The notes under the pieces: generated by a model
What the model saw: only the letters and a program-made list of their open reading frames with translations
Told to the model about the DNA's origin: nothing
Databases searched by the model: none
Assembly (NCBI RefSeq): GCF_030013595.1
Contig: NZ_CP122768.1
DNA from: Escherichia coli
GTDB lineage: Bacteria > Pseudomonadota > Gammaproteobacteria > Enterobacterales > Enterobacteriaceae
DNA: 64,000 nucleotides
Direction: 5' to 3' (one strand)
Shown here: in pieces, positions 29,600 to 35,856 of the stretch
How the letters are laid out: each line of letters begins with the position of its first letter
Position numbering within the stretch: the stretch's first letter is position 1
Program-made: the position numbers and the translations under genes

Positions 29600-29740
29600 G
29601 CGGGACGCTGAAACGGGAAAGCCCCTCCCGAGGAAGGGGCCATAAATAAGGAAAGGGTCATGATGAAGCTACTCATCATCGTGGTGCTCTTAGTCATAAG
29701 CTTCCCCGCTTACTAAGACTACCAGGGCGGGGGAAACCCC
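29600..29740 (-). ncRNA. sibB: Sib-type antisense sRNA (antitoxin of ibsB); approximate bounds
   Basis: Established arrangement: Sib RNAs are transcribed antisense across ibs ORFs. A minus-strand hairpin plus T-rich tract lies near 29600-29640. Bounds not verifiable here. Confidence 0.35.
29660..29716 (+). CDS. ibsB: type I toxin, small hydrophobic peptide
   Basis: 18-codon ORF encoding MMKLLIIVVLLVISFPAY preceded by AAGGAAAGGG; matches the Ibs toxin family. Confidence 0.7.
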   Translation: MMKLLIIVVLLVISFPAY

Positions 29741-29929
29741 GCTCTACCCTCACTCCTGAAAGTATGCCTTCACGATAAGATTGTCAATCCGCAGGCTTTG
29801 TAGTCTGCGATCCTGCCAGCAAATATTCTTTGCGAGTCGTTACGCAATAATCACAGAGGAAACTATTTTATTCACGCGTTAGCGATAGACTGCATTCAGG
29901 GCGAAAGGAGGTAAGCCGATGATTTCAGC

Positions 29930-30070
29930 GGGACGCTGAAACGGGAAAGCCTCTCCCGGAGAAGAGGGCTTTTAATAAGGAAAGGGTTATGATGAAGCAC
30001 GTCATCATACTGGTGATACTCTTAGTGATTAGCTTCCAGGCTTACTAAGAACACCAGGGGGAGGGGGAAA
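29930..30070 (-). ncRNA. sibA: Sib-type antisense sRNA (antitoxin of ibsA); approximate bounds
   Basis: Second copy of the repeat unit; inferred by analogy with the first copy. Confidence 0.35.
29989..30048 (+). CDS. ibsA: type I toxin, small hydrophobic peptide
   Basis: 19-codon ORF encoding MMKHVIILVILLVISFQAY preceded by AAGGAAAGGG. Confidence 0.7.
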   Translation: MMKHVIILVILLVISFQAY

Positions 30071-30268
30071 CCTCTCCCTAACCCTCACTCCTGAAATTAT
30101 GTCACTCCGCCCTTAGTGTCAATCGACGGCTCTCCGTTCTTGCGAGGCGAATAGCAAAATTTTCTGCGCCGCCGGGCCTAATTCTGAAAGTTTCTTCGTT
30201 TGCTCTTATTTCATTATTGCAGTCGGTATGATACCGGACCTCGATAATTCTCTAAGAAAGGATTTCTT

Positions 30269-30928
30269 ATGAGCGAACAAATCACGTTTGCCACCAGCGA
30301 TTTTGCCAGTAACCCGGAACCACGTTGCCCCTGCATTTTGCTGCTGGATGTTTCTGGTTCTATGAACGGTAGACCTATTAATGAACTTAACGCCGGATTG
30401 GTTACCTTTCGTGATGAACTGCTTGCTGATCCGCTGGCTTTAAAAAGAGTGGAACTCGGCATTGTGACGTTCGGCCCGGTGCATGTGGAACAACCCTTTA
30501 CCAGCGCCGCTAATTTTTTTCCGCCCATCCTGTTTGCCCAGGGCGATACACCAATGGGTGCGGCCATTACCAAAGCCCTGGATATGGTAGAGGAGCGGAA
30601 ACGTGAGTATCGTGCAAATGGTATTTCGTATTATCGCCCGTGGATTTTCCTGATTACCGATGGTGCACCAACCGATGAGTGGCAGGCTGCAGCCAACAAA
30701 GTGTTTCGGGGGGAAGAAGATAAAAGGTTTGCTTTCTTTTCCATCGGTGTTCAGGGGGCGGATATGAAGACGCTGGCACAAATTAGCGTTCGTCAGCCTT
30801 TGCCTCTGCAAGGATTACAATTCCGTGAACTGTTTAGCTGGTTATCCAGTTCGCTGCGTTCGGTTTCCCGCTCCACGCCGGGAACGGAAGTTGTGCTGGA
30901 AGCGCCAAAAGGCTGGACGTCAGTGTGA
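30269..30928 (+). CDS. yegL: von Willebrand factor A (vWA) domain protein, TerY-like
   Basis: 219-aa ORF with a MIDAS motif (LLLDVSGSM ... ITDGAPTD); recognised as YegL. Confidence 0.88.
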
Positions 30929-31686
30929 GCTGGCGTCTGGTCTATGCATCAACCGTTGGAACGTCGCACATCAGCGCGGACTTGCCTTGTCAGGATGCCT
31001 GCCAGATGCAGATTGCCTGGTTAAATGACCAGCAGCCATTATTGTCGGTATTTGTCGCTGATGGCGCAGGCAGTGTCTCGCAGGGTGGCGAAGGCGCGAT
31101 GCTCGCCGTCAATGAAGCGATGGCTTATATGTCGCAAAAAGTGCAGGGCGGGGAATTGGGGCTTAATGATGTCCTCGCCACAAATATGGTACTGACCATT
31201 CGTCAACGACTTTTTGCCGAGGCGGAAGCCAAAGAATTAGCGGTTCGCGATTTTGCCTGCACATTTCTGGGACTGATTTCATCGCCTGACGGCACCTTGA
31301 TTATGCAGATTGGCGATGGCGGCGTGGTGGTAGATTTGGGTCACGGTCTGCAATTGCCTCTCACGCCGATGGCGGGTGAATATGCCAACATGACGCACTT
31401 CATTACCGACGAAGATGCCGTTTCCAGACTGGAAACTTTCACCAGCACTGGGCGTGCGCACAAAGTTGCAGCATTTACGGATGGTATCCAGCGACTGGCG
31501 TTAAATATGCTGGATAATTCTCCTCATGTGCCTTTCTTTACCCCGTTTTTCAATGGACTGGCGGCAGCAACGCAGGAACAACTCGATTTATTACCTGAAT
31601 TGTTAAAGCAGTTTTTGTCCAGCCCGGCGGTAAACGAGCGTACGGATGATGATAAAACGTTGGCACTGGCGCTGTGGGCAGAGTGA
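30925..31686 (+). CDS. pphC: PP2C-family Ser/Thr protein phosphatase
   Basis: 253-aa ORF (YegK); GTG start overlaps the yegL stop (GTGA), implying translational coupling; VADGAGS / IGDGG motifs fit a PP2C fold. Confidence 0.85.
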
Positions 31687-31750
31687 GTTTCTCATGGCGG
31701 TTGAAGACAACAATTCAACCGCCAGTTTAAACAATAAATATAACGGCTGA

Positions 31751-32212
31751 TTAGCGAACTAATTTTGCTCTTAGCTCGTCGGCTTCTTCTTTTGGATAGG
31801 TGACCAATAAAGGATCAATGGTATAACCGCCGTAAATTTTATCCCCGCGCGTATACATCCAGTCTGAAATATCTTCTTTCTTGATTTTCCACTCCTGGCC
31901 ATATTCTACGTTTGTAACAATACCAGGGTCATTGCTGATTACGCCAATAAACATGCCGTTAGAATAAGTGACATCCGTAAGCCAGAAATGCTCGGTTCTT
32001 CCGTGATCGGTTATCGGGGCTTTGACTGCGAAAGTATCGGCATCTTTTTTATTCATAACCTCGATGAATTTATCGGTTTCTTTCCGCGCATGTTTAATCG
32101 CGTCAGACATCGCTTGTTTATCATAACCTCCCGTCACTAACGTATCCGAAACTTCACTAAAGCCCGCGGTAGTAAAAAATAGCAGACTCAACATAAGTAA
32201 TATCTTTTTCAT
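31751..32212 (-). CDS. yegJ: secreted DUF-type protein of unknown function
   Basis: 153-aa ORF with an N-terminal signal peptide (MKKILLMLSLLFFTTAGFS); AT-rich relative to neighbours. Confidence 0.8.
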   Translation of the reverse strand: MKKILLMLSLLFFTTAGFSEVSDTLVTGGYDKQAMSDAIKHARKETDKFIEVMNKKDADTFAVKAPITDHGRTEHFWLTDVTYSNGMFIGVISNDPGIVTNVEYGQEWKIKKEDISDWMYTRGDKIYGGYTIDPLLVTYPKEEADELRAKLVR

Positions 32213-32411
32213 TTTTTCTCCAGAATCCCTTTGTAGTCAAAGTTAGCAAAAACCTGTGGAAGTTAATCATTATCAGGCCGAAATTGAATTGTATCCTGAT
32301 AAAATTGCATTATCATTTTTATTCTTGAGTGGGTTTTCCCCATATAGAAATAATTTTAATGGTTAGTTGTTATTATTCATTGAAATATAATATAACTACC
32401 CGCGAAATATT

Positions 32412-34358
32412 ATGAAAACAAATATAAAAGTATTTACATCGACAGGTGAATTGACCACTCTTGGCCGTGAACTGGGCAAAGGTGGTGAAGGCGCGGTTTA
32501 TGATATCGAGGAGTTTGTCGATAGCGTCGCCAAGATTTATCACACGCCGCCACCCGCCTTAAAACAGGACAAACTTGCCTTTATGGCTGCGACAGCTGAC
32601 GCGCAGTTGTTGAATTATGTCGCCTGGCCGCAGGCAACGCTTCACGGTGGACGAGGCGGAAAAGTTATCGGTTTTATGATGCCAAAAGTTTCTGGTAAAG
32701 AACCGATTCATATGATCTATAGCCCGGCACATCGTCGCCAGAGTTACCCTCATTGTGCGTGGGATTTTCTACTCTATGTTGCGCGCAATATTGCTTCATC
32801 TTTTGCTACGGTTCACGAGCACGGGCACGTCGTGGGTGACGTAAACCAGAACAGTTTTATGGTAGGTCGCGACAGCAAAGTGGTACTGATTGATAGCGAC
32901 TCCTTTCAGATTAACGCCAATGGCACACTGCATTTATGCGAAGTCGGCGTGTCGCATTTTACGCCGCCAGAGCTACAAACCTTGTCGTCATTTGTCGGCT
33001 TTGAACGCACAGAAAATCACGATAATTTTGGCCTTGCGTTGCTGATTTTTCACGTCTTGTTTGGTGGCCGGCATCCTTATTCTGGTGTGCCGCTTATCTC
33101 TGATGCGGGTAATGCGCTGGAGACGGATATTACCCATTTCCGTTATGCCTACGCGTCAGATAATCAGCGACGTGGTTTAAAACCGCCGCCACGATCGATT
33201 CCGCTATCGATGTTACCGAGTGATGTTGAAGCCATGTTTCAGCAGGCATTCACGGAAAGTGGCGTGGCAACCGGGCGTCCGACGGCTAAAGCGTGGGTAG
33301 CGGCACTTGATTCTCTGCGCCAACAGTTAAAGAAATGTCCCGTTTCGGCAATGCATGTTTATCCCGCTCATTTGACCGACTGCCCGTGGTGTGCGCTGGA
33401 TAATCAAGGCGTTATCTATTTTATTGATCTCGGCGAAGAGGTCATTACCACCAGCGGTGATTTTGTGCTGGCGAAAGTCTGGGCGATGGTGATGGCGTCA
33501 GTAGCACCGCCAGCATTGCAATTGCCATTACCCGATCATTTCCAACCGACTGGCAGGCCGCTTCCTTTAGGCCTGTTACGGCGCGAATACATCATTCTGA
33601 TTGAGATCGCACTGTCAGCGTTATCGCTGTTGCTTTGCGGCCTTCAGGCAGAACCGCGTTATATTATTTTGGTTCCTGTGCTGTCGGCTATCTGGATTAT
33701 TGGCAGTCTGACAAGCAAAGCGTACAAAGCAGAAGTTCAGCAACGCCGTGAGGCATTTAATCGCGCGAAAATGGACTATGACCATTTATTCAGCCAGATC
33801 CAACAGTTGGGCGGGCTGGAAGGTTTTATCGCCAAACGGACGATGCTCGAAAAAATGAAGGACGAAATGCTCGGGTTACCGGAAGAAGAAAAACGTGCTC
33901 TGGCAGCACTTCACGACACCGCAAGGGAACGGCAGAAGCAGAAGTTTCTGGAGGGATTTTTTATTGATGTTGCCTCTATTCCCGGCGTTGGCCCTGCGCG
34001 TAAAGCGGCGTTACGGTCCTTTGGTATTGAAACAGCAGCGGATGTTACCCGTCGTGGGGTTAAGCAAGTGAAAGGGTTTGGTGATCATCTGACCCAGGCA
34101 GTTATCGACTGGAAAGCAAGTTGCGAACGCCGTTTTGTGTTCAGGCCGAATGAAGCGGTAACGCCAGCAGACAGACAAGCGGTAATGGCGAAAATGACCG
34201 CCAAACGACATCGGCTGGAATCGACGTTGACTGTCGGCGCGACAGAGTTGCAGCGATTCCGCCTTCATGCTCCAGCACGGACCATGCCGTTGATGGAACC
34301 GTTACGTCAGGCGGCAGAAAAACTGGCTCAGGCGCAGGCAGATTTAAGCCGCTGCTGA
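32412..34358 (+). CDS. yegI: membrane-anchored atypical Ser/Thr protein kinase with C-terminal helix-hairpin-helix
   Basis: 648-aa ORF; kinase-like motifs (GKGGEGAVY, VAKIY, HGHVVGDVNQNS, DSDSF), two hydrophobic helices near residues 395-440, and an HhH (IPGVGPARKAALRSFGIETAADV). Confidence 0.85.
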   Translation: MKTNIKVFTSTGELTTLGRELGKGGEGAVYDIEEFVDSVAKIYHTPPPALKQDKLAFMAATADAQLLNYVAWPQATLHGGRGGKVIGFMMPKVSGKEPIHMIYSPAHRRQSYPHCAWDFLLYVARNIASSFATVHEHGHVVGDVNQNSFMVGRDSKVVLIDSDSFQINANGTLHLCEVGVSHFTPPELQTLSSFVGFERTENHDNFGLALLIFHVLFGGRHPYSGVPLISDAGNALETDITHFRYAYASDNQRRGLKPPPRSIPLSMLPSDVEAMFQQAFTESGVATGRPTAKAWVAALDSLRQQLKKCPVSAMHVYPAHLTDCPWCALDNQGVIYFIDLGEEVITTSGDFVLAKVWAMVMASVAPPALQLPLPDHFQPTGRPLPLGLLRREYIILIEIALSALSLLLCGLQAEPRYIILVPVLSAIWIIGSLTSKAYKAEVQQRREAFNRAKMDYDHLFSQIQQLGGLEGFIAKRTMLEKMKDEMLGLPEEEKRALAALHDTARERQKQKFLEGFFIDVASIPGVGPARKAALRSFGIETAADVTRRGVKQVKGFGDHLTQAVIDWKASCERRFVFRPNEAVTPADRQAVMAKMTAKRHRLESTLTVGATELQRFRLHAPARTMPLMEPLRQAAEKLAQAQADLSRC

Positions 34359-34370
34359 GCCAGTTTTCAA

Positions 34371-35723
34371 TTAACGAAACACCACTTCCGCCCAGCGTGC
34401 CAGCCCGGCGGTGACGGAGCCAAAGTCATCGCCGCCTGCAATCGGAATGCCCGGCAACTGTTCTGCCAGCGCTTTTTTAATCAGCGGCGAACGGGCGCTA
34501 CCGCCGGTCAGGTATATAACGTCCGGTTTTTCCTGGGCGTTATCCAGCGCCAGTTGCACCTGTTCCAGAATTCGCGCAAGCGGCTGGCTGAGGGCGCTTT
34601 CCAGCCCTTGCTGGCTAATCAGCGTAGCCAGTTCATCGCTGATAAACGGCAGTGAGGCGCGAGTTTCCGCAGTGCTGGAAAGAGCAATTTTGCTCTCTTC
34701 TGCGCTGCGTACCAGGCGATAGCTTAAACGCTGACGCCAGACTTTCTGTAACAGGGCCACTTTTTCCGGTTCGCGGGCATCGCGTACCAGATCGTTAAGC
34801 AGACGACCGTTGGCACTACTGTAGAAATCACTCTGCGCAGGAACGTCGTTGATGGCAACCGCATTCCACCACGGCAGAATCGGCAGGGCGATGCCTTTTT
34901 CGGTTTCGCCACCCATGCCCAGTAACGGCATCAGGTTTTTAAACGCCAGCGCGATATCCAGATCGTTACCGCCAATACGGCAACCACTGTGACCCAGCAG
35001 GCTGGCTTCACGATCGAGACGCGAACGCCACTGCGGCCCCATCAGCAGCAATGAACAGTCAGTCGTACCACCGCCGATATCCACCACCAGCACCCGTTTT
35101 TCTTCCTGCAAGGTGGCTTCGTAATCCAGCCCAGCCGCGACCGGCTCGTACTGGAATACCACGTCCCTGAATCCGGCACGCTTCGCCGCGCGTTCCAGAA
35201 TCCCTTGCGCCTGGGCGTTTGCTTCATCGCCGCCAAGCCCCTGGAAGTTGATCGGGCGACCAATCACTGCCTGAGTAATTGCCTCCGGCAGTTGAGCCTG
35301 CGCCTGTTGGCGAATGTGCAACATCATTGCGCAGACCAGATCCTCAAACAGCGCTACCTGCTGCGGTTTTAAGCCGCTGGCACCGAGGAACGATTTTGGT
35401 GATTTCACAAACCACACTTCTTCTGGATCATCAATGTACTGTGCCAGTGAGGAAAGACCGAACTGCACGCTTTTCGCCGTAACATCGATATCTTCTTCGC
35501 GGTTATAACGAATCGCCCGACGCAACAGCGCCTGCGTTTCATCGTCGTCTGCCGGAACATCATGATGGCGGTACAGCCATTCGCTTACCGCTTCACGCGT
35601 TGGCGCGCAAAGCATTGAAGGCAGCAGCGTGCTGTCGTTTTCCATTTTTAGCAAGTGCGGTTTACCGTCACGCATGACCGCCACTGAACAGTTTGCTGTA
35701 CCGTAATCAAAACCAATAAACAC
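34371..35723 (-). CDS. yegD: Hsp70/actin-fold ATPase (DnaK-like chaperone homologue)
   Basis: 450 aa from the GTG at 35723 (VFIGFDYGTANCSVAV..., Hsp70 phosphate-1 motif; VVDIGGGTTDCSLL phosphate-2); the ORF track extends 21 codons upstream without an SD. Confidence 0.82.
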   Translation of the reverse strand: MFIGFDYGTANCSVAVMRDGKPHLLKMENDSTLLPSMLCAPTREAVSEWLYRHHDVPADDDETQALLRRAIRYNREEDIDVTAKSVQFGLSSLAQYIDDPEEVWFVKSPKSFLGASGLKPQQVALFEDLVCAMMLHIRQQAQAQLPEAITQAVIGRPINFQGLGGDEANAQAQGILERAAKRAGFRDVVFQYEPVAAGLDYEATLQEEKRVLVVDIGGGTTDCSLLLMGPQWRSRLDREASLLGHSGCRIGGNDLDIALAFKNLMPLLGMGGETEKGIALPILPWWNAVAINDVPAQSDFYSSANGRLLNDLVRDAREPEKVALLQKVWRQRLSYRLVRSAEESKIALSSTAETRASLPFISDELATLISQQGLESALSQPLARILEQVQLALDNAQEKPDVIYLTGGSARSPLIKKALAEQLPGIPIAGGDDFGSVTAGLARWAEVVFR

Positions 35724-35856
35724 GAAATAATCCCCATGCCGGTGAAGAAGGGGCGTGACTTTAGCGAAATGTTGCCGTCGCGACAACCGGAATATGAAAG
35801 CAAAGCGTAGCGTCTGAATAACGTTTATGCTGAAAGCGGATTAACAAGGAGATGCG

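Follow-up and report, generated by a model that had tools for sequence, protein, structure and literature searches.

Known kinase-phosphatase-vWA systems and the yegL-pphC-yegI locus

TerY-P triads, as defined by comparative genomics (Anantharaman, Iyer & Aravind 2012, via PMC11090510 and PMC4978471), unite in one operon a TerY-type von Willebrand factor A (vWA) protein, a PP2C phosphatase and a Ser/Thr kinase in which a zinc-ribbon-like Cys/His motif comes after the kinase domain, with relatives in DNA-processing, restriction and mobile contexts. TerY-P-like triads have been reported to defend cells on their own against T7-like phages (Gao et al. 2020, via PMC7699616 and PMC11090510), and a TerY-P variant overlooked by detection tools protects Pseudomonas aeruginosa from Autographiviridae (Costa et al. 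2024, PMC10889362). In the 64,000-nucleotide stretch of Escherichia coli chromosome analysed here (the window), positions 30269-34358 cover exactly the DNA from the start of yegL, a vWA gene, to the stop of yegI, a membrane kinase gene, with the PP2C gene pphC (yegK) and the oppositely oriented yegJ between them. All tested features of the TerY-P definition were found, i.e. a TerY-type vWA protein with a metal ion-dependent adhesion site (MIDAS), a PP2C gene in the same operon, a Ser/Thr kinase, a zinc ribbon and conserved clustering of all three genes. In the window the yegJ insert parts the kinase gene from yegK, which it overlaps in E. coli strains without yegJ and adjoins in all other taxa. 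The E. coli locus is a chromosomal copy of a TerY-P-type phospho-switch cassette, split here by a yegJ-bearing insertion. This bears out the TerY-P classification made in an earlier, sequence-only reading of the window, whose placement of yegL, yegK, yegJ and yegI was also exact.

The locus departs from the described triads in that YegI adds a membrane hairpin of two helices, a stalk of coiled coil and a probable double helix-hairpin-helix, (HhH)2, and in that the E. coli genes, interrupted by yegJ in the window, have no McrBC/CoCoNuT, WXG/FtsK or ter genes nearby. The 4090-bp stretch itself is 100% identical to several annotated E. coli chromosomes, in which its genes are labelled “yegL vWA domain-containing protein”, “pphC protein-serine/threonine phosphatase PphC”, “YegJ family protein” and “protein kinase YegI”. 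Since the genes are annotated in practically all E. coli genomes, the kinase/phosphatase pair is biochemically characterised and the trio is the TerY-P triad of the literature, the locus was already known. The window thus yields a correct re-discovery of documented genes, biochemistry and family, and no new biology.

YegI and PphC are the only Hanks-kinase/PP2C pair of E. coli, with two biochemical studies to date, and the sequence-only reading had rightly described them as enzymatically active. Rajagopalan and Dworkin described PphC as an active Mn-dependent PP2C phosphatase with p-nitrophenyl phosphate (pNPP), casein and phospho-YegI as substrates (10.1101/303594). YegI autophosphorylates, with Mn2+ preferred, on activation-loop serines and with second-order kinetics, its activity requiring K39 and D141 (REL606 numbering; K41 and D143 here) and an unusual DSD loop (10.1101/819920). 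YegI phosphorylates PphC, and PphC dephosphorylates YegI (10.1101/819920, 10.1101/303594). Adjacent and co-transcribed kinase and PP2C genes, activation-loop autophosphorylation and a kinase that is itself a substrate of the phosphatase are shared with PknB/PstP, PrkC/PrpC and Stk1/Stp1, and by Foldseek the kinase fold resembles PknA/PknB. YegI differs from these pairs in having neither PASTA nor any other extracellular sensor, in showing VGD and DSD for HRD and DFG, and in being accompanied by a dedicated vWA partner gene. A further parallel is offered by PpkA/PppA/Fha1, which controls the H1 type VI secretion system (T6SS) of P. aeruginosa by threonine phosphorylation and likewise joins a Hanks kinase to a PP2C phosphatase and a vWA domain in a post-translational on/off switch for a conflict apparatus; PpkA has its vWA domain in the periplasm, as part of the kinase protein itself, and the output (Fha1, T6SS assembly) is known. 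The yegLKI genes differ in that neither an FHA protein gene nor T6SS genes lie beside them.

Domain architecture of YegL, PphC and YegI

The yegL gene (30269-30928, plus strand) encodes a stand-alone TerY-type vWA protein of 219 residues, which matches Pfam VWA at 1.8e-9. Its MIDAS, already noticed in the sequence-only reading, is complete (D27-x-S29-x-S31, T94, D131). Across 29 homologues D27, S31, T94 and T130-D131-G132 are invariant and S29 nearly so, 69 of the 219 residues are invariant, and a Ser-rich C-terminal tail is conserved (FRELFxWLSxSLxSVSxSxPG). One protein search for YegL homologues was uninformative, with E. coli variants alone in its listing. YegL is the best-conserved partner of the triad, with 70-85% identity where YegK and YegI show 50-65%, and about 50% where YegI shows 30%. 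In a genome-wide overexpression screen, overproduced YegL and YegI each raised endogenous DNA damage (10.1101/354589).

In the IncHI2 ter cluster, TerD/TerX and a “TerY-C” protein are flanked by TerY VWA proteins with which YegL shares 32-37% identity. This kinship raises the alternative that the triad is a sensor of metal or tellurite-type chemical stress, in which the MIDAS of YegL would sense a divalent metal or metalloid and the kinase and phosphatase would relay the signal. It would fit the position of the closest YegL paralogues in a tellurite-resistance cluster, the invariance of the MIDAS, the recurrence beside the triad of DUF4236, a gene family of ter clusters, and the metal-sensing switch hypothesis that PMC11090510 attributes to Anantharaman et al. 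2012. Nevertheless, neither the window nor any of the related loci examined has TerZ/A/B/C/D/E genes close to the triad. YegL is moreover cytoplasmic, and MIDAS sites normally mediate protein-ligand contacts and not metal readout, so that we consider a metal sensor improbable.

The pphC gene (30925-31686, plus strand; 253 residues) begins with a GTG within the sequence GTGA at 30925-30928, where its start overlaps the yegL stop, and the translational coupling suggested from the sequence is upheld. PphC matches Pfam PP2C_2 at 6.4e-52, and its motifs DGAGS, GDGG, DG and DDD, of which the PP2C-like character had been recognised before, are conserved in homologues. An NCBIfam search of the triad proteins gave weak, sub-threshold matches only.

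The yegI gene (32412-34358, plus strand) encodes a membrane Ser/Thr kinase of 648 residues, whose first ~300 residues (32412-33311) form a divergent Hanks-type kinase domain with a Gly loop at residues 22-27, K41, VGD143-VN145, and DSD161-163 in place of DFG. In Pfam this domain of the E. coli protein falls below the Pkinase thresholds and is without a match, and a PDB sequence search with the YegI profile gave no significant relative. Among 107 full-length homologues (32-90% identical), 88 match Pkinase at <=1e-3. An AlphaFold (AF2) model built on their alignment has a mean per-residue confidence score (pLDDT) of 94.6, and its first ~300 residues match the kinase domains of BRAF, PknA and PknB (Foldseek probability 1.00, target TM ~0.7). 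Residues G22-x-G24-G25-E26-G27, K41, D143, N145, D161 and D163-S164 are invariant or nearly so among homologues. The canonical HRD and DFG loops are not present, HVVGD143VNQNS and LID161SD163SF standing in their place; these non-canonical loops have been pointed out in publication, with 3 of 10 canonical kinase residues missing (10.1101/819920). The modelled fold places YegI solidly among Hanks-type kinases, as a more divergent member than the sequence-only reading had implied, and profile searches support the vWA, PP2C and kinase assignments alike, though the kinase domain of YegI itself is unmatched in Pfam.

Between the kinase domain and the membrane lies a motif that the earlier reading missed, C309-x5-H315-x8-C324-P-W326-C327 (residues ~305-331; 33324-33404). 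Residues C309, H315, C324, W326 and C327 are invariant in the 107 homologues, and the model shows a small beta-hairpin plus helix. By sequence and model this element matches the zinc ribbon described for TerY-P kinases, and metal binding is predicted. A membrane hairpin follows (33588-33713), consisting, by sequence and model helices, of a first transmembrane helix (residues ~393-411), the loop QAEPR and a second transmembrane helix (~417-434). The two helices agree with the earlier reading and with PhoA-LacZ topology data showing that YegI crosses the membrane twice with both termini inside (10.1101/819920). With a periplasmic loop of just five residues, YegI is unable to sense anything outside the cell, and its conserved non-catalytic parts, from the zinc ribbon and coiled-coil stalk to the probable (HhH)2 module and the long helix at the end, are all cytoplasmic.

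Beyond the hairpin, AF2 models predict cytoplasmic helical hairpins and a coiled coil (residues ~435-513; 33714-33950) and, at the C-terminus, a long helix (residues 585-647; 34164-34358 including the stop codon). The putative (HhH)2 module lies between them (residues 517-573; 33960-34130; IPGVGPARKAALRSFGIETAADV ... VKGFGDHLTQAVIDW). The C-terminal HhH of the sequence-only reading finds some backing in matches to Pfam HHH_5 (E 0.0025 with whole YegI and 4.8e-4 with the C-terminal piece; 31 of 107 homologues at <=0.1) and in the conserved G-I/V-G and G-F-G hairpins. It was not recovered by fold searches with the model of the C-terminus (pLDDT 95), which returned coiled-coil matches only, and profile comparison of this region with AlkA and with RuvA (using an approximate sequence) gave nothing.

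Distribution, genomic neighbours and possible function

The three genes of the triad form a self-contained, mobile cassette. When GTDB species were scanned with one genome each, 26 loci were identified, a lower bound given the restrictive search patterns used, and in every locus with enough upstream DNA yegL, yegK and yegI are contiguous on one strand. This arrangement extends far outside Escherichia, through Gamma-, Beta- and Alphaproteobacteria and beyond, to Burkholderiales, Klebsiella spallanzanii, Hyphomicrobiales, Microvirga and Verrucomicrobiota and also to the Pseudomonas megaplasmid pQBR103, so that the co-occurrence of the three genes beyond close relatives, the lack of which would have counted against the sequence-only reading, is confirmed. 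yegJ, yegD, alkA and mdtA stand beside the triad within Escherichia only and at none of the other loci. A YegI profile run against 1.84 billion cluster representatives (50% identity) retrieved 11136 proteins at E<=0.001 and 4237 at <=1e-30; among the 150 best matches listed, most are ~645 residues long and align over their full length. YegI relatives are found in 83 plasmid records, 46 of them conjugative. Within Escherichia YegI is 89-98% identical, and the nearest protein outside the genus (Klebsiella) is at 62%, a gap within Enterobacteriaceae which suggests horizontal acquisition.

A phage origin was considered because three PHROG families (phrog_28389, phrog_37072 and phrog_37888) match YegL, YegK and YegI, respectively, almost identically from end to end (E down to 0), and was not accepted. 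The most likely source of these near-identities is prophage regions whose borders were wrongly drawn in Escherichia genomes. The phage-genome collection held one distant, unannotated contig with a weak kinase relative (MT836238.1, 26.7% identity).

Recognised defence genes occur within 10 kb of the cassette in 6 of 12 independent annotated contexts outside Escherichia, as a raw count. In Chromobacterium, genes for PifA (PADLOC 1.4e-118) and AbiH lie directly upstream, within a Tn7-like element. Herbaspirillum LeCh32-8 carries Lamassu LmuA/LmuB (4.9e-116) 2 kb downstream and a patatin-domain gene further downstream, and Herbaspirillum YR522 an OLD/AriA/GajA-like ATPase, a PDDEXK nuclease and a 1786-residue STAND-like protein (STAND NTPase). 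A metagenome contig has a type I restriction-modification (RM) system adjoining the triad, plus an Mrr-like nuclease; K. spallanzanii has GmrSD, type I RM, SymE and BrnA near it; and Piscinibacter has genes for BrxR/WYL, JetB, an SLFN-like helicase, McrA-like, NYN and SNase proteins. Such neighbourhoods are suggestive. The combination of vWA, PP2C and Ser/Thr kinase is that of the TerY-P defence system (Gao et al. 2020; PMC10889362), and relatives of the E. coli cassette stand beside PifA, AbiH, Lamassu, RM and GmrSD.

On the basis of these genomic neighbours and of the TerY-P defence precedent, a role of the cassette in conflict with phage or with foreign or mobile DNA is our best single guess, at a probability of about one half. 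Three steps of the switch are published, namely autophosphorylation of YegI, its dephosphorylation by PphC and the membrane topology, and the others are proposed here. The input would be cytoplasmic and probably a nucleic acid that YegI encounters at the inner membrane, for instance the DNA of an entering phage or other foreign DNA. Binding through the HhH and zinc ribbon would gather YegI molecules and lead to trans-autophosphorylation, upon which active YegI may phosphorylate YegL (the Ser-rich C-terminal tail being a candidate site), other host proteins or proteins of the invader. The MIDAS of YegL could serve as a phospho- or metal-dependent adaptor, and PphC would reset the switch. If such a DNA-triggered defence switch were real, it would give a function to three y-genes of a model organism, add a common subtype missed by defence-annotation tools, and make Ser/Thr phosphorylation in bacterial immunity accessible to study in a tractable system.

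Several observations weigh against a role in conflict. The E. coli locus is nearly universal (the 4090-bp stretch is matched in 5416 of 5426 complete E. coli genomes, and at least 80% covered in 5392 of them) and occupies a single fixed site between mdtABC and yegD/alkA, which makes it unlike typical variable defence islands and, in contrast to the TerY-P defence system, core and not accessory. E. coli K-12 carries the locus, yet is a standard permissive host for T7 and most coliphages. Of the 12 contexts outside Escherichia, 3 remain ambiguous, their neighbours being nucleases, radical-SAM genes of the HxsBCD kind or Tn7 TnsA (nucleases or mobile-element genes only), and another 3 have housekeeping or uninformative neighbours. 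With the TerY-P models of PADLOC-DB v2, YegL reached TerY at E 0.032 only and YegK had no match even at E<=10; YegI found weak generic kinase matches only (PD-T4-6/MkoA), and the PADLOC search of YegL, YegK, YegJ, YegI and YegD returned no TerY-P assignment. The HhH, the weakest element of YegI, is weakly supported, and DNA binding by it is a prediction. According to PMC11090510, the validated TerY-P kinases are fused C-terminally to an OB fold, whereas the C-terminus of YegI is modelled as all-helical (membrane hairpin, coiled coil, HhH, long helix), with no OB fold. In the two biochemical studies no condition giving robust expression of the yegLKI locus was found, and the sole reported substrates of YegI are YegI itself and PphC (10.1101/303594, 10.1101/819920). 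A literature search found no report of a phage phenotype for yegLKI, and the published primers for the P. aeruginosa TerY-P variant matched nothing in two metagenome scans or in the loci and proteins gathered here. That yegLKI belongs to the TerY-P defence system in its experimental definition is not established.

Several of these observations would suit the main rival reading, a domesticated, endogenous module of stress or stationary phase, in which YegI and PphC tune housekeeping phosphorylation related to envelope state, DNA damage or growth arrest and have no role in E. coli against phage or plasmids. The fixed position of a core gene set in 99% of the complete genomes of E. coli, the strong purifying selection acting on yegL (ratio of non-synonymous to synonymous rates, dN/dS, of 0.03-0.05), the presence of some relatives among housekeeping genes and the absence of matches to PADLOC defence models are all consistent with it, as are the transcriptional silence of the locus and the free infection of K-12 by T7 despite its presence. 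Expression of yegI has been seen only weakly, in stationary phase (10.1101/819920), and Rajagopalan and Dworkin cite recurrent yegI mutations in the long-term evolution experiment. On the other hand, the distribution outside Escherichia is patchy (62% versus 89-98% YegI identity), conjugative megaplasmids and repeated defence-gene and transposon neighbours are unexpected for a housekeeping regulator, and no physiological substrate or phenotype is on record. We regard such a stress module as possible, and as less probable than a role of the cassette in conflict.

Under laboratory conditions the E. coli copy, a core one, is silent, and it is possibly domesticated. It is tempting to extend the conflict role further and to see in YegLKI-type cassettes a very widespread TerY-P immunity subtype unannotated by current tools, with a kinase that is tethered to the inner membrane, has a sensorless periplasmic side, detects incoming phage or plasmid DNA directly via its HhH and zinc ribbon and signals through YegL, the E. 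coli copy being nearly universal, normally silenced, and uncoupled by yegJ in about one-third of strains. This broader proposal is speculative, and we hold it as tentative.

Some loci show further associations. Four independent loci of Burkholderiales have a gene for an SNase-family nuclease directly upstream of yegL, at a distance of 70-105 bp and in the same orientation (PADLOC C3a212 “SNc+LTD”, 1.2e-9; locus L028, 7719-8474; also L006, L007, L012, L021 and L036/L037), some of which have an open reading frame of ~70 codons just before it; it could be an accessory effector of a Burkholderiales sub-clade. DUF4236 genes adjoin the triad in two unrelated loci (L036/L037, 3962-5182; L045, 1441-2265), and another is found in the IncHI2 ter cluster beside terW and terY (L043, 6838-8046), possibly a further link to ter/TerY-P neighbourhoods. 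In two Burkholderiales contigs the triad lies in variable DNA beside comEC and a circularly permuted ATP-grasp gene (L035, 1090-2994; L044, 13479-15239), with cargo that differs between them, i.e. a type I RM system in one and a Tn7 TnsA-like gene plus Endonuclease_NS in the other; the site looks like an integration hotspot. The kinase gene itself also varies. In Candidatus Methylophosphatis roskildensis (L017, 9002-14037) the yegI homologue is split by an insert of ~5 kb (kinase residues 7-340 and 345-646), and the upstream yegL looks truncated. In the alphaproteobacterium Microvirga massiliensis (L041, 7959-13114) the kinase homologue has 1037 residues, with matches to a peptidoglycan-binding domain at its C-terminus, and is divergent to adjoining genes for HxsD and two radical-SAM (HxsB/C-like) proteins; a radical-SAM gene pair also occurs ~8 kb from the triad in L036/L037.

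The yegJ insertion, selection and flanking genes

The yegJ gene (31751-32212, minus strand) encodes a protein of 153 residues that matches DUF2314 at 2.9e-25 and has a hydrophobic, signal-like N-terminus (MKKILLMLSLLFFTTAGFS). It lies in a 788-bp segment (31678-32465) of low G+C content (39-40%, versus 49-54% in the triad genes), which replaces the ~55-bp overlapping yegK/yegI junction of yegJ-less strains; alignment to the yegJ-less E. coli E69 and E. whittamii sets the homology breakpoints at 31677 and ~32466. From this segment come the final codons of pphC, the whole of yegJ, the 199-bp intergenic region between the divergent yegJ and yegI, and ~18 codons at the start of yegI. The yegJ region is covered to at least 80% in 1898 of 5426 complete E. 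coli genomes (~35%), and yegJ was found neither in any locus outside Escherichia nor in the other Escherichia species examined. In the yegJ-less form the yegK stop and yegI start overlap, as GTGA in E. coli E69 and as ATGA in REL606 (10.1101/819920). A 4-nucleotide overlap at each junction in yegJ-less E. coli points to an ancestral operon with two such overlaps. As a strain-variable, low-GC insert, absent from relatives and breaking the overlapping yegK-yegI junction, yegJ is a passenger unrelated to the triad. Its opposite strand and signal-like N-terminus had been read correctly from the sequence, and its portrayal as an embedded component of the module was not upheld. In a 2026 study YegJ was reported to bind the N-terminal half of RNase E and, when overproduced, to induce yegD (PMC13232886).

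Selection was assessed as dN/dS between the window and E. coli E69 and E. whittamii. Against 0.03-0.05 for yegL, and 0.03-0.04 for the flanking mdtA and yegD, values were ~0.14 for yegK and ~0.11 for yegI, the latter two genes evolving ~3-fold faster than their flanks. The range of 0.03-0.14 indicates that purifying selection maintains all three triad genes, with the two enzymes somewhat more relaxed. The E69 allele of yegK (L018, 2980-3732) has 80% DNA identity to the window and a synonymous divergence (dS) of 0.84, compared with 0.27-0.37 (~0.3) for its neighbours, and was therefore probably imported as a divergent allele, with the import limited to the phosphatase gene. An unusual difference in PphC between K and B strains, with which this agrees, has been published, the MG1655-type enzyme being less active than the B-type (10.1101/303594). 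In the draft genomes of Escherichia sp. E1V33 and MOD1-EC7003, yegI aligns in two frames (L004, 6025-6050) or has an inflated dN (L003), which suggests frameshifts due either to pseudogenes or to assembly errors; yegI dN/dS for L003 and L004 was left out owing to the apparent frameshifts.

The insertion could also mean that the locus is an inactive relic in this strain, the yegJ split and transcriptional silence having ended the joint function of the three genes. The destroyed yegK/yegI overlap would agree with this, together with the lack of detectable transcription in published work, the lower activity of MG1655-type PphC and the apparent yegI frameshifts in two Escherichia sp. assemblies. 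All three open reading frames are nevertheless intact in the window, purifying selection continues, the proteins are enzymatically active in vitro (10.1101/819920, 10.1101/303594), and a promoter-like site, at the level of a consensus match, lies upstream of the relocated yegI start. We consider a relic very unlikely.

The gene order in the window is mdtC-mdtB-mdtA (minus strand), two Ibs/Sib loci, yegL, pphC, yegJ (minus), yegI, yegD (minus), alkA and dgcE. The convergent yegD (34371-35726, minus strand) ends 12 bp past the yegI stop and encodes a “molecular chaperone” of the Hsp70/actin-like kind (808 bits to NCBIfam NF008673). It was considered as a fourth component of the triad and rejected, as it adjoins the triad in Escherichia only. 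Immediately upstream of yegL, on the minus strand, are two full-length Sib antitoxin RNAs (29645-29787 and 29974-30122; Rfam SIB_RNA, 142 and 149.5 bits, respectively). They are paired with the plus-strand ibsA and an Ibs-family toxin reading frame, so that a tandem type I toxin-antitoxin pair lies between mdtA and the triad.

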